Source: a virus
Taxonomy: Duplodnaviria > Heunggongvirae > Uroviricota > Caudoviricetes
Reading direction: 5' to 3' (one strand)
Virus record (IMG/VR): IMGVR_UViG_2541047790_000014
Span: 1 to 29,346 of that record
Length of the DNA: 29,346 nt
Under the pieces are notes generated by a model, which worked only from the letters and a program-made list of their open reading frames with translations, was not told the origin of the DNA and did not search any database. This document shows positions 1 through 29,346 of the stretch, piece by piece; position 1 is the stretch's first letter, and every line of letters starts with the position of its first letter. The position numbers and the translations under genes were made by a program.

Positions 1-1173
1 TCAGGCCTTATGGTGGAAATAATCACTCAGGCGGGAAAACATGCTGCCTTCCCCGACAGATTCCAGGGTAACCAGCGGCCAGTGCGCCACCTGTTTATCA
101 CGGTCGTAAAGTTCAATTTCCCCTACCCGCTGATGGGCGCTAATTGGCGCGGTGAGTTCTTTACCATCAAGGGTATATTTGGCTTTGATATGTGGAATTT
201 CGGCTTTCGGTAGCACCATCCAGAACTCTTGTTCCGTTCCCAGGGCGATATTTTCTTTATCACCATACCAGATGCGTTCCGTACCGACCTTTTTCCCACG
301 GTGCAAAATTTGCACCGTAGTAAAGTTTTGTTGCCCCCAACGCAGTAATTTTCTTGCCTCTTCCTCACGACCTTTTGCGCTGTCAGCCCCCATTACCACT
401 GCAATGAGGCGACGCTGCCCGTCTACAGCCGAAGCAATAAGATTAAACCCGGCACCAGAAGTATGGCCCGTTTTCAGGCCGTCAACATTCATGGTTTTAT
501 CCCACAATAACCCGTTACGGTTTTGCTGGGTGATACCGTTCCAGGTGAGGCTTTTCTCACTGTACATATGATAAAACTCGGGCTCGCCGTGGATGATAGC
601 GCGAGAAAGCACGGCTAAATCATAAGCCGAGCTATGCTGGCCAGGTGCATCCAGACCATGCACTGTTTCAAAATGCGTATCCTTGAGATGCAGCTTCTCG
701 GCATAGTTGTTCATCATTTCAACAAACTGCCGTTGCCCACCGGCAATATAGTCAGCCAGAGCAACACAAGCGTCATTTCCGGAATCCACAATTAAACCAC
801 GGCTTAAATCACGTACCGATACGCGATCGCCCTCTTTCAAAAACATCAGTGAAGAACCGACAAACACCGGATTATCTTTCGCCCACGCATCGCGCCCCAC
901 GGTGACAATATCGTCTGGCGTAATGCGATGACTATCGATAGCGCGATCCACGACATAGCCCGTCATCAGCTTTGTCAGGCTGGCGGGATTGCGCTGTTGA
1001 TGCTCATTACCCGCGGTGAGAATCTGACCGGTGGTGTAATCCATCAATACCCAGGACCCGGCATGAATCTCTGGAGGCTGAGGTGAAAAAGGAATGTTTT
1101 CCGCCGCAAAACCAGACGATAAATTAAAAACGAACAAAGAAGCAGCAATAATAAGACGGCGTTTCAACAGCAA
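1..1173 (-). CDS. dacD: D-alanyl-D-alanine carboxypeptidase, class C low-molecular-weight PBP (PBP6b-like)
   Basis: Complete 390-aa ORF with signal peptide and the three serine-PBP motifs (SLTK, SGND, KTGH). Gene identity as dacD is from memory of the E. coli protein and the divergent sbcB-like start 202 bp upstream. Confidence 0.8.
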   Translation of the reverse strand: MLLKRRLIIAASLFVFNLSSGFAAENIPFSPQPPEIHAGSWVLMDYTTGQILTAGNEHQQRNPASLTKLMTGYVVDRAIDSHRITPDDIVTVGRDAWAKDNPVFVGSSLMFLKEGDRVSVRDLSRGLIVDSGNDACVALADYIAGGQRQFVEMMNNYAEKLHLKDTHFETVHGLDAPGQHSSAYDLAVLSRAIIHGEPEFYHMYSEKSLTWNGITQQNRNGLLWDKTMNVDGLKTGHTSGAGFNLIASAVDGQRRLIAVVMGADSAKGREEEARKLLRWGQQNFTTVQILHRGKKVGTERIWYGDKENIALGTEQEFWMVLPKAEIPHIKAKYTLDGKELTAPISAHQRVGEIELYDRDKQVAHWPLVTLESVGEGSMFSRLSDYFHHKA

Positions 1174-1375
1174 ACCCTCAGGTGTTTCAAATAGCTGTTC
1201 TTTTTACGGAAATACTTATGAACTGGCTGGAATAAAGTGCAAGAAAATGTGACTACTATCTCATTTTTATCTGACATGATCTGTTGCCACTCGCTGCCAA
1301 ATTGTCGCGCTAAAGCTGATTAGCACGGTGATATTTGATACTCTGGCAGACAGCAGAAATAACGGATTTAACCTA

Positions 1376-1438
1376 ATGATGAATGACGGTAAGCAACAAT
1401 CTACCTTTTTGTTTCACGATTACACGCACCCCACCTGA
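1376..1438 (+). pseudogene. sbcB: Truncated 5' fragment of exonuclease I gene (first 16 codons, then divergence and stop)
   Basis: ATG ATG AAT GAC GGT AAG CAA CAA TCT ACC TTT TTG TTT CAC GAT TAC encodes MMNDGKQQSTFLFHDY, matching my recollection of the SbcB N-terminus. The next expected residues (ETFG, including catalytic Glu17) are absent and the frame stops at 1436-1438. Spacing to dacD is as expected for the host locus. Confidence 0.5.
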
Positions 1439-1477
1439 GAACAGCCATGAGTAAGGGTTTCATGGTTTATGATTTTA

Positions 1478-1499
1478 GTTTGGTACACAATTTGGTACA
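1478..1499. repeat. Tandem direct repeat TTTGGTACACA x2, candidate integrase binding sites near the prophage-host junction
   Basis: Two adjacent 11-bp copies about 45 bp inside the apparent junction. The repeat resembles the remembered sbcB core sequence TTTGGTACGCAC that is missing at the junction. Confidence 0.4.
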
Positions 1500-1958
1500 C
1501 ATCGCAATTTTCACATCACCGGGCAGTCATAAAACTCACCATAACGCTCTTCGTTGATGATGTACGTGATCACCAAAAATATCGCATCCGGACTAGTTCC
1601 ATCTTCATGCGTAGGTATCTGTTCATGCCTACCTGTCTGCAAATCCTAAAGATGAGATTTTAGAGTTTTGGGATATCTTTTTATCCTCAGTTCTCTATCC
1701 ATTCTGCAAACCAGTAACGAACCATCACCGTGTGATAGTGAGGCATCCGCTACGTTAAGCGCAGAGAAATGATGCAGTGGTGGGCGGATTGGATTGATGA
1801 AAAGGTGGTGTGACCCGCCTTAACAACTATCGAATATCACAAAACCTTGCAATCCAGTGCAAAGCTTTGTGTGCAAGAATATTTTCTCACCAACATCATG
1901 ACAACATTATTCTCTTAGTTAATTACATCGAAAAATCATACATAACCATATTAATTAA

Positions 1959-1985
1959 CAATCTGCGCCTTTTCGACGCAGATTT
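1959..1985. terminator. Putative terminator hairpin downstream of the tailspike gene
   Basis: Perfect 7-bp inverted repeat ATCTGCG / CGCAGAT with a 9-nt loop, flanked by AT-rich sequence, just past the tailspike stop at 2007. Confidence 0.35.
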
Positions 1986-2006
1986 CATATTGTTTTATGT
2001 TGAATA

Positions 2007-4394
2007 TCATATTTTATTTAAGTTATTCTTTTTTAATGTCATCTCTAGTTCTTCGATACGTCTTTCTATATTATCAATTCTCTCCCAGCATTGCTGAATT
2101 GATTTAACAATAGGTGGGATAAACTCATCGTAACCGAGTGAGTAAACATCATCCCCACCATTTTTCAAGTGATGCTGTAGCCCACCGAACTCAACACCTA
2201 ATTTTTCACACAGTTTCAATACGTCCTGTGCAATAAACCAGTGATGGTATCGTTGACGTTTTTTACTGCCGTCAGGAGTTTTCTGCACTACTTCAAGATA
2301 TTTTTCTTCGACATTCTCAATAGCTGATATAGTAATTCCATCAACATCTCGTTCTACTTTTTTTGGTACAATTCTTGTCTTTTCAATAACATCAATATAA
2401 TCATCACGCATATCCCAGCGACCATCGACAGGACGAAGCCCAAGGATAAATTCAATCCCCAGCAAAGTATCTCGGATATCTGTTTTATCACGCGCATCAG
2501 ATCTGTTTTGCACAGTTCCATATACATACGTCGTTGTGGAAGAATTGCCAAGCTGCACCTGATTACTTCCAGACACTCTTGCATCATTGCCAACAGTTGT
2601 TGTGTTGGTAAGTGATGATGTGCTTTCCCCTGATTGAGTTAATCTACCTGAATTATGTCCAATAGCCGTGTTTAATGCGCCGGTTGTATTTGTGACAAGA
2701 GAGCCAGACCCAATTGCAACGTTACTGCTTCCCGATGTTGTTCCTTTTAATGCCTGCTGTCCAACCGCAACATTATTATCACCCGTTGCTGCTATAAGTG
2801 CCATGTGACCAATAGAAACGGTAAATGAACCTAGCGTTTGAGTTTCACCGCATGCACCATAACCAATTACAACAACATTATCTGTAATTGTTGACTCGGT
2901 TGCCGCTCCAGCACCAATAACAACGCTTTCATTCCCGGCAAGATTCTTGCGCATTGCGAACATTCCAATGCCAACATTATCATGCCCAGTCCCTGTACCT
3001 GCTGCCTCCGCAGCACCAAGACAGTTTCCCGCTCTGTAGCCAACCATGGTGTTATTTGAACCAATAGAGAAGTCTCCGGCAAAAGAGCCTACGTATACAC
3101 TATTAGACTGTGAGTAATCTCCAGGATTTCCATTCGCCCGATATCCTACTGCAACTGTATAAATAGTATCTGGAGCCTCAGCCATGGCCTCAAAGCCAAC
3201 TCCAACGTTATATCTACCGCCCTTAACTTTTTCTCCTGCACCAAGTCCGAAGAATGAGTTATAGCTCCCGGTTGTTAGCCACTCGCCAGCAACAGAACCT
3301 ACAGCAGTGTTTCCTGTTCCAGTACATCGATACAAAGTCAGGAAGCCAACTCCGGTATTATTATTTCCTGAAATATTACTCATCAATGATTTTGACCCAA
3401 TGGCAGTATTGTTAACACCATCGGTCAGATCCTGTAACGCTCGCGGGCCAAATGCTGTATTATCGTAACCCTTTGGCGCTGTTGTTGGATCTGGTAACTC
3501 CGGGGTTAGTTTTTCACCACCGCCACCATTGGCACAAAGATTGTAAGATCGAATAAATTCAGCCACTGGCCCAAGTTTTAAATAACCATTGGCAATATTA
3601 ATTCTGACACTTACATTAACTGAGCTACCAGGAGCTTCTATTGTCCTGTCATCAACCCAGGTAAAACTCTGTGGTATCCCGTCATAAGTTAATGTCACAT
3701 CTCCTTTATCATTATAATTATAGAACAATGTATAACGCTCATTTATAGATTCAGAACCTGATGATCCTCCTCTCCTCCACCACTCTGCATTATCAAAAAT
3801 AAGTAATCCTGGACCATAATATTTTCCCTTCTGACCCAAGATCATAGGAGTCGATAATCGCCACCTTCCCTCTGGAACATATACATCGATCCCAGTTCTT
3901 TCTGCGTCTTTAAACGATTCATCACATAATAAAACACCACCTTCAACAGCACCAAATCCACGAACATCACCATTATCTCTCCATCGAGCCATTTGCAACT
4001 CAGGATACTTCTTAGCGCCATCAATGTCTTCTAATTGGTCCCGCAGCTGATCAGGATCATACTTCAGTACATTAGGAAAATAGAACTGCTGAGCACCGTA
4101 AGCATCATATACAGCCATAGAATGGCCTTGCACAGTTACGAACTTGGCAATCTGTCCGTTATATACAGGGTAACCAGCAGCGTTAAGGATGATTGGTTGT
4201 GAAACAGGAATGTGAGAACCATCTTCACTCTCTACATAAACCTGAATCTGGTTTTCAGGATTTACCGGGTCAGTGTCAATTTTACCGATATAAATTTTGC
4301 CATTAGCTACGGCTTTAAAAGAGCGAGCCATAGTGAAGAGTTGCGATGGCATCCCAATTACAACATTTGGGGTTATATTAGGCATATTAGTCAT
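2007..4394 (-). CDS. Tailspike protein: P22-gp9-like head-binding N-terminal domain, repeat-rich receptor-binding domain, C-terminal intramolecular chaperone (peptidase S74-like)
   Basis: N-terminal stretch [25 protein letters not shown]...[13 protein letters not shown]...LKYDPDQ closely resembles the P22 tailspike head-binding domain. The centre has many NTAIG/NVGVG-type repeats. The C-terminus has the Ser-Lys dyad context SDARDK typical of self-cleaving fibre chaperone domains. Start placed at MTNMPN (4394); the ORF extends to 4478 but that extension lacks an RBS. Confidence 0.85.
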
Positions 4395-4809: not shown

Positions 4810-5061
4810 ATGGGAAGAGATGACCCGCAATTTAATCTGCGGCTACCTTACGAATTAAAGGAAAAACTAAAACAGCGAGCCAAATCCAATGGCCGCTCTC
4901 TTAATTCAGAATTAGTTCAGATAGTGACTGATGCTGTATCAAAGCCATCCAAAATTTCAGGCTATCGAGACGATGCGGAACGCATCGCTGATGAGCAGTC
5001 CGAACTTGTTAAGAAGATGGTGTTTGATACGCTGAAGGATTTGTACAAAAAAACCACCTGA
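4810..5061 (+). CDS. mnt: Mnt repressor (ribbon-helix-helix, Arc/MetJ family)
   Basis: 83-aa protein MGRDDPQFNLRLPYELKEKLKQRAKSNGRSLNSELVQIV...ELVKKMVFDTLKDLYKKTT is near-identical to my recollection of P22 Mnt. RBS GAGG 8 nt upstream. Confidence 0.9.
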   Translation: MGRDDPQFNLRLPYELKEKLKQRAKSNGRSLNSELVQIVTDAVSKPSKISGYRDDAERIADEQSELVKKMVFDTLKDLYKKTT

Positions 5062-20617: not shown

Positions 20618-21103
20618 TTATTTCAGTTCGTTACCAGGCATTTCTTTTAGCTCTTTCAAATGACAACGATTGAGGCTAAACCACTCCCCGTGCGACCTAT
20701 AGTTGTAATATTTTTGGTGCAATTTGGTTTCAAGCTCTCTATCGGACGGAATCTTTGCAATTAGATTTAGCTTCCCACCACTCATGCGAGATATCTCTGA
20801 AATTCGTTTATTAACCCTGCGACTAAACCCTATTTTTGTTAGCCCACTATCTTCAGCATGCAGAACGTACACATATGATTTTTGCGAAGCACTGGGTGCG
20901 ACTTTGTTGTAATTAATCATGTCAAACATGAAGCCTTGCTTTAGCAAAGTTTCAAAAAAGATAGAATTAACACACCCATTCCTTCTCAGCTCTGCACTTA
21001 GCTTGTCAATTTCCTCTATGATGTCGCCAGACCCCTTTCCACTTATAAGAAAATCTTGGTACATGCGACCAATTCTTGAGGTAATTTCAACAAAGTTATT
21101 CAT
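20618..21103 (-). CDS. T5orf172 (GIY-YIG-like) domain protein, accessory gene
   Basis: 161-aa protein whose C-terminal half (YVYVLHAEDSGLTKIGFSRRVNKRISEIS...LETKLHQKYYNYRSHGEWFSL) matches the T5orf172/MUG113 pattern (YVYVL, KIG, R, E..LH, GEWF). AT-rich, weak RBS, set between a terminator and the terminase operon. Confidence 0.65.
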   Translation of the reverse strand: MNNFVEITSRIGRMYQDFLISGKGSGDIIEEIDKLSAELRRNGCVNSIFFETLLKQGFMFDMINYNKVAPSASQKSYVYVLHAEDSGLTKIGFSRRVNKRISEISRMSGGKLNLIAKIPSDRELETKLHQKYYNYRSHGEWFSLNRCHLKELKEMPGNELK

Positions 21104-29041: not shown

Positions 29042-29205
29042 AACTACCTGCCTTGACGAAAGACCTTAAGAACATCGTTAAACTGACTTACGGATATGTC
29101 TTCTTTGAGCAGCTTTTCCAGTAACCGTCTCATTTAAACCGTCTTTCGCCTCCCTTTCCTGTTTCCGATACTAATGTCCATTTTCGCAGTAAAGGGACAT
29201 TTAAG

Positions 29206-29346
29206 ATGAATGCACGAAAAGCGGTACTGGCAGACAATCCGGAATTGATCCTGCGTGTGCTACAACTGAGATTTGACGAGTCACTGTCGTACCCGCGCAT
29301 TTCTGCGCAGACCGGTATCAGCAAAACCGCCATTTTTTCTCTGGTG
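29206..29346 (+). CDS. Partial CDS (runs off the window end): N-terminus of an HTH protein of unknown family
   Basis: ATG at 29206 with RBS AAGGGA 8 nt upstream; MNARKAVLADNPELILRVLQLRFDESLSYPRISAQTGISKTAIFSLV contains a sigma70-region-4 / transposase-type HTH pattern. Confidence 0.3.
   Translation, partial: MNARKAVLADNPELILRVLQLRFDESLSYPRISAQTGISKTAIFSLV

Follow-up and report, generated by a model that had tools for sequence, protein, structure and literature searches.

The dacD-sbcB locus and its prophage

The analysed DNA, a stretch of 29,346 nucleotides that is called the window throughout, begins in host sequence with dacD, passes through the native intergenic region into the first codons of sbcB, and then continues into prophage DNA, inside which it ends. 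The features on which the text relies are the following, in window coordinates:

1-1173, minus strand: dacD, a host gene encoding D-Ala-D-Ala carboxypeptidase (open reading frame list and RefSeq annotation of the identical ZH063 sequence, in which RefSeq places the start at 1167)
1174-1375, no strand: native dacD-sbcB intergenic region, 202 bp, identical to the empty-site locus and aligned to K-12
1376-1438, plus strand: sbcB' remnant, in which 16 native codons (MMNDGKQQSTFLFHDY) are followed by 4 from the phage (THPT) and the stop
1412-1423, no strand: attL copy of the 12-bp crossover core TTTCACGATTAC, corresponding to sbcB codons F13-Y16, a direct repeat at both prophage ends
1424-1449, no strand: start of the P' arm, matching sbcB codons 21-29 in decayed form (20 of 26 positions, shifted by the 12 bp absent from attP)
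1443-1477, plus strand: hairpin with a T-rich run, terminator-like (terminator scan), just 3' of the sbcB' stop
1479-1501, plus strand: tandem TTTGGTACACA repeat (Tandem Repeats Finder), putative P'1 and P'2 arm-type integrase-binding sites
1517-1762, minus strand: humD/umuD-like (S24 peptidase) pseudogene remnant without its N-terminus and with an internal stop, beside attP
2007-4385, minus strand: tailspike gene, the last prophage gene before attL (RefSeq; Pfam Head_binding, E 1e-63)

The sbcB' open reading frame starts with ATG at 1376, stops at 1436-1438, runs divergently from dacD and matches the N-terminus of K-12 SbcB. Its first 48 nt (1376-1423) are those of sbcB in a near-isogenic strain with an empty site, and the identity stops at 1423. 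The initial annotation had placed a start of exonuclease I (ExoI) about 202 bp from the divergent dacD, and it was right, as MMNDGKQQSTFLFHDY at 1376-1423 represents the first 16 sbcB codons; its description of phage-like AT-rich DNA past the junction is also borne out by composition, with GC falling from 0.50 at 1-1000 to 0.41 at 1001-3000. Compared with the empty-site locus, the insertion leaves 1174-1375 untouched, and this interval presumably still holds the native sbcB promoter; a promoter consensus scan of 1174-1375 found none. The hairpin at 1443-1477 (RNA fold -10.3 kcal/mol, z -2.3) is conserved in eight phages and, lying with its T-run after the stop of the stub, probably insulates the prophage by stopping transcription that would enter it from the native sbcB promoter.

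Between the junction and the tailspike lies a 583-bp interval (1424-2006) with no gtr or oac gene, in which only the humD-like pseudogene and no open reading frame above 95 aa were found. The absence of O-antigen conversion genes, which had been claimed before, is thus confirmed up to the tailspike stop (2007), and the tailspike-attP interval has no serotype-converting cassette of the P22-like type (gtrABC or oac). For the humD-like remnant, tblastn with HK140 gp028 aligned 83 aa at 48% identity (E 5e-19) across an internal stop, and its homologue in another strain is annotated by RefSeq as a HumD-family pseudogene. Intact versions of this humD/umuD-like gene (S24 peptidase, pol V subunit) are present in HK140 and APC_JM3.2, while many prophages with this att module carry a decayed one. 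An Rfam family search of 1100-2200 gave nothing credible at E up to 1.

Positions 1100-2100 of the window are 100% identical to 16 complete E. coli chromosomes (e.g., ZH063, SaT040, S21EC), and this match spans dacD and the phage tailspike gene. One of the 16 chromosomes is typed O25:H4, and all 16 are taken to be ST131 strains. The window equals the ZH063 record except for one SNP and the last 225 bp. The prophage of ZH063 has a complete P22-like gene set, which includes tailspike, ejection proteins, tail needle, gp10, gp4, a P22-type coat protein, portal, terminase, lysis genes, a nin region, replication genes, cI/cro, erf and abc, and this gene set ends in a tyrosine integrase that is directly followed by an annotated full-length sbcB.

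Several other genes of the prophage deserve a mention. Of the tailspike, Pfam and solved structures identify no more than the P22-type head-binding domain (residues 1-113); the receptor-binding part of about 680 aa has no sequence relative in the PDB and falls in phrog_4636, a Peptidase_S74 (endosialidase chaperone) match towards the C-terminus stays below threshold (20.1 bits, cut-off 22), and the exact gene is common to only 16 complete genomes. Beside the tailspike, at 4810-5061 (plus strand), the immI region encodes a Mnt-type repressor (Arc and Repressor_Mnt domains), with no evident antirepressor gene close by. Flanked by the lysis cassette and the terminase genes, a gene for a GIY-YIG/T5orf172 (MUG113) nuclease at 20618-21103 (minus strand) may be a moron resembling homing endonucleases. 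The last 225 bp (29122-29346) belong to an IS66-family element, of which they form the left end (TnpA accessory gene); the element interrupts a small prophage gene that lies between those for the replication protein and cII. None of the 16 sister genomes has this insertion at that position; it is private to the prophage found here, which may be defective or rearranged.

The attachment core and the reconstituted sbcB

As a reference for the empty site we used the near-isogenic strain NZ_OZ040267.1 (locus L008), in which both the DacD protein and the IS200C located downstream of sbcB are the same. The left flank differs from it by one mismatch in 1375 bp and the right flank, read in ZH063, by one mismatch in 1894 bp. 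With ZH063 and the window set against the empty site, the insert measures 40,025 bp and is bounded by the 12-bp direct repeat TTTCACGATTAC, the second copy of which lies at the right junction (43835-43846 of locus L001). It is a clean site-specific insertion into sbcB codons F13-Y16. The initial annotation had placed a prophage in the 5' end of sbcB next to dacD, and both the ZH063 annotation and the alignment to the uninterrupted dacD-sbcB locus, with identity to 1423 and phage DNA from there on, agree with this; the other prophage end, located in the sister genomes, carries the remainder of sbcB together with the core.

The left junction reads ...CACGATTAC|ACGCACCCCACCTGA, while attB reads ...CACGATTAC|GAAACCTTTGGA|ACGCACCCCGCG. 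In all seven free or deposited phage genomes of our attP set (mEp234, Sf101, HK140, 1717, E212, HK544 and APC_JM3.2), the 12 bp GAAACCTTTGG(A/C) are absent, and attP passes from the core straight to (G/A)CGCA.... The ETFG codons are therefore absent at attL, as had been noted, but they were not lost there, since the seven attP lack the same 12 bp and the gap must predate integration; by this comparison attL consists of exactly the host left side and the phage right side. The local alignment of 1424-1449 with sbcB is equalled in score by 5 of 2000 shuffles, and to the left of the core attP reads TAAGCAAC, a three-base gap and CTACCTT against sbcB, a one-codon deletion (14 of 2000 shuffles with an equal score). 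On both sides of the core, the attP region thus reads as a decayed copy of the sbcB 5' coding end, with the one-codon deletion on the left and a 12-bp deletion on the right. In an eight-phage alignment 1424-1449 is variable, and the 10 bp to the right of the core vary freely.

The prophage extends past the end of the window, and attR with the rebuilt sbcB, approximately 40 kb away, was read only in the 100%-identical sister lineage. There the phage supplies ATGACAGACACAGATAAGCAACCTACCTTCCTC upstream of the core, and the substitute start MTDTDKQPTFLFHDY is fused in frame with ETFG.... The resulting open reading frame has 474 codons, begins MTDTDKQPTFLFHDYETFGTHPALDRP... (MTDTDKQPTFLFHDYETFG...), and is annotated by RefSeq in the sister genomes as a full-length exodeoxyribonuclease I. 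It aligns end to end with solved structures of E. coli exonuclease I, from which it differs in the first approximately eight residues and in four scattered substitutions further along. D15 and E17, DEDDh residues of ExoI, are encoded at and after the core and so are retained. The phage-borne substitute coding segment is homologous to sbcB (14 of 2000 shuffles reach its score). Between the phage segment upstream of the substitute start and the sequence preceding native sbcB, no homology could be detected (362 of 2000 shuffles). A consensus sigma-70 scan of the 181-bp phage spacer between int and sbcB', upstream of the substitute start, found none, and inspection by eye gave weak promoter candidates only. 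In the sister genomes sbcB is, as far as its sequence tells, rebuilt at attR and not inactivated, and we infer that the rebuilt gene would be expressed and active.

Two other explanations of these junctions have to be weighed. The left junction is short of attB by exactly 12 bp, yet it goes on with ACGCACCCC, which is identical to sbcB, so a secondary deletion of GAAACCTTTGGA, between AC microhomologies, could have occurred in attL after integration; however, the same 12 bp are missing from all seven free or deposited phage attP, which rules such an event out and leaves it with practically no probability. It is also very unlikely that the insertion knocks out sbcB, with the attL stub alone expressed and the lysogen deficient in ExoI. 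The open reading frame at attL does stop after 20 codons, the sequence before the substitute start at attR yielded no strong promoter, and the prophage of the window contains an IS66 element while attR was read in sister genomes only; against this, sister genomes with a 100%-identical attL have a full-length, in-frame sbcB at attR, the hybrid attR junction occurs in 582 genomes, with sbcB annotated under every full-length match listed, and the 5' coding mimic borne by the phage is in frame and significantly homologous to sbcB, which is the pattern expected of a gene-rebuilding insertion. The earlier proposal that sbcB would be inactivated unless the other junction restored it was right to allow for restoration, as the sister attR has the full-length open reading frame, and its inactivation half does not hold in the sister genomes.

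The tandem repeat and the putative arm-type sites

Tandem Repeats Finder places the tandem repeat at 1479-1501 (period 12, 1.9 copies, 100% match), with the arrangement TTTGGTACACA-A-TTTGGTACACA and the copies at 1479-1489 and 1491-1501; the repeat reported before at 1478-1499 is real, its coordinates differing by 1-2 nt. In 29 kb, approximately 0.007 exact 11-mer duplications with a 12-bp spacing are expected. Eight independent phage attP regions have the repeat conserved at this position, and in their alignment the P' pair is invariant but for one A/G position. In the 49-kb locus there are three exact copies of TTGGTACAC, two at 1480-1500 and one beside the int start, and two more copies with one mismatch lie beside int, all five on the same strand. 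In the window prophage, mEp234 and HK140, the TTGGTAC(A/G)C copies are found at -205, -182, -171, +68 and +80 from the core start, while in Sf101 both P' copies are one base nearer the core (+67 and +79). The integrase, encoded outside the window and read in the sister genome ZH063, has an N-terminal PF13356 domain (Arm-DNA-bind_3, E 1e-17) and a catalytic PF00589 domain (E 6e-17), both above the gathering cut-offs. Because of this layout, the conservation and the domain content of the integrase, the repeat best fits a putative P'1/P'2 pair of arm-type sites.

The initial annotation had seen in the repeat a resemblance to the missing sbcB sequence, which it considered consistent with att-site homology. 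The resemblance exists (9 of 11 positions, TTTGGTACACA against TTTGGAACGCA) but is weak (P ~0.03), and the att-site reading cannot be kept, as the core lies at 1412-1423, the extended homology at 1424-1449, and the motif on both arms. It is highly improbable that the repeat derives from or imitates the displaced sbcB sequence (CCTTTGGCACGCA) and belongs to the att homology on which recombination relies: it matches 9 of 11 of the sbcB bases that are absent from attL, the G variant of the motif in mEp234 (TTTGGTACGCA) matches 10 of 11, and an arm-like TTGGAACGC lies in attB, 19 bp from the core start (L008 1835-1843, sbcB codons 19-22), but three of the five motif copies lie some 170-205 bp away across the core, beside int, where there is no sbcB-like sequence, the crossover core proper and the extended sbcB homology proper are at the other positions just given, and one such near-match is plausible by chance at the background frequency. 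Matches to TTGGTAC(A/G)C with up to one mismatch occur about once per 2.45 kb, which gives P ~0.03 for one near the core; TTGGAACGC in sbcB is therefore probably a chance occurrence, and the impression of a repeat resembling sbcB goes back to it. The resemblance of the repeat, at 9-10 of 11 positions, to the sbcB bases CCTTTGG(A/C)ACGCA is likewise compatible with chance, and the tandem repeat as att core or sbcB homology was dropped in favour of arm-type sites. Somewhat less remote, and still unlikely, is the binding of another factor to the repeats, such as an AlpA-type excisionase or a host protein, instead of the arm-binding domain of the integrase. An AlpA-family gene does adjoin int; however, excisionase sites typically occupy one arm while the repeats lie on both, and the integrase has a domain dedicated to arm binding.

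It is distinctly unlikely, on present indications, that, with the promoter and first codons of sbcB replaced, phage-supplied signals overlapping the integrase- and excisionase-binding P arm control the host exonuclease I, that the prophage tunes ExoI levels in this way, and that TTGGAACGC in attB and attR is a functional Int contact. If this were true, ExoI, a 3'-5' ssDNA exonuclease, could for example be lowered during induction, favouring phage Erf/Abc recombination and genome circularisation.

Interpretation and comparison with known systems

Taken together, 1376-2006 is very probably the attL of a P22-like (Lederbergvirus-type) prophage of about 40 kb, inserted at the attB of "phage 2851-type" in sbcB, with the gene rebuilt at attR and the repeats serving as arm-type sites. 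What is directly shown under this reading is the junction anatomy, the core, the restored open reading frame in sister genomes, the homology to published phages and the conservation of the five sites. Site-specific recombination by the tyrosine recombinase would have integrated the prophage into attB inside sbcB codons 13-16. Host sequence runs to 1423, ending with the core TTTCACGATTAC, and the phage P' arm comes next. Such an integration leaves a 20-codon stub at attL, because attP is a decayed sbcB copy with deletions beside the core, while at attR, as read in the sister genomes, the phage start MTDTDKQPTFLFHDY joins the rest of sbcB in frame and yields a 474-codon exonuclease I with D15 and E17 intact. 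The N-terminal arm-binding domain of the integrase may bind the five sites, three in the P arm by the int start and two in the P' arm, and so assemble the intasome.

The prophage attachment junction is ordinary and already documented, sbcB being a published and frequently occupied phage site, and it matters little beyond correct annotation: the locus is not to be counted among sbcB knockouts, the 20-codon stub does not constitute a gene, and the tandem repeat belongs to attP. The int and P arm (from ZH063) are 98.5-99.1% identical in nucleotides to the complete phage genomes they match, which include 2851, 1717, Sf101, mEp234, HK140 and HK544 (2851 and 1717 are Stx phages), and the P' arm (1401-1875) is 86-90% identical to the same phages (Sf101, mEp234, 1717, 2851). 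In GenBank, mEp234 and HK544 are annotated with "attP; prophage attachment site (type 2851); similar to sbcB". For phages 2851 and Sf101 a 13-bp attP, CGTAATCGTGAAA, has been published (PMC4159516), and the core TTTCACGATTAC is this sequence minus one base; a 2024 preprint gives a 12-bp att at sbcB (bioRxiv 2024.03.06.583675) that equals the core found here. In O157, sbcB belongs to the four main sites of Stx phages, and 26.9% of 346 strains have it occupied (PMC8309913). Among 5426 complete E. coli genomes we found an attL of this type in 574 (roughly 1 in 10) and an attR in 582. A literature search on ST131 together with an sbcB prophage found nothing specific.

The insertion shares with the phage 2851-type module (2851, 1717, Sf101, mEp234, HK140, HK544) the same core, the same sbcB codons and the same five-repeat layout, and differs from the listed phages in its P22-like podovirus backbone and in its ST131-type (O25:H4) chromosome. 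The 13th base of the core is A here and G in the 2851-type, so the identity is 12 bp, and to the right of the core there follow 10 bp of a distinct variant, ACGCACCCCA, which resembles sbcB more closely. Here the cargo slot stands empty, while Sf101 carries oacB in the same slot.

Gene-reconstituting prophage insertions include phage 21/e14 in icd and Stx phages in wrbA or yehV. As in those, a diverged copy of the gene end that is displaced comes with the phage, and the open reading frame is rebuilt; unlike the icd, wrbA and yehV cases, it is the 5' end, with the start codon and any promoter, and not the 3' end that is replaced here, and expression of the host gene would therefore depend on phage DNA.

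With heterobivalent integrases of the lambda Int type (P1, P2, P'1-P'3) the system has in common the N-terminal arm-binding and tyrosine-recombinase catalytic domains, and clusters of short direct repeats that lie in either arm at distances of tens to hundreds of bp from the core. In contrast to lambda, the arm-binding domain here is of the P4-type (PF13356), the layout is 3+2 with all sites on the same strand instead of 2+3, and int is transcribed inward from the att side.
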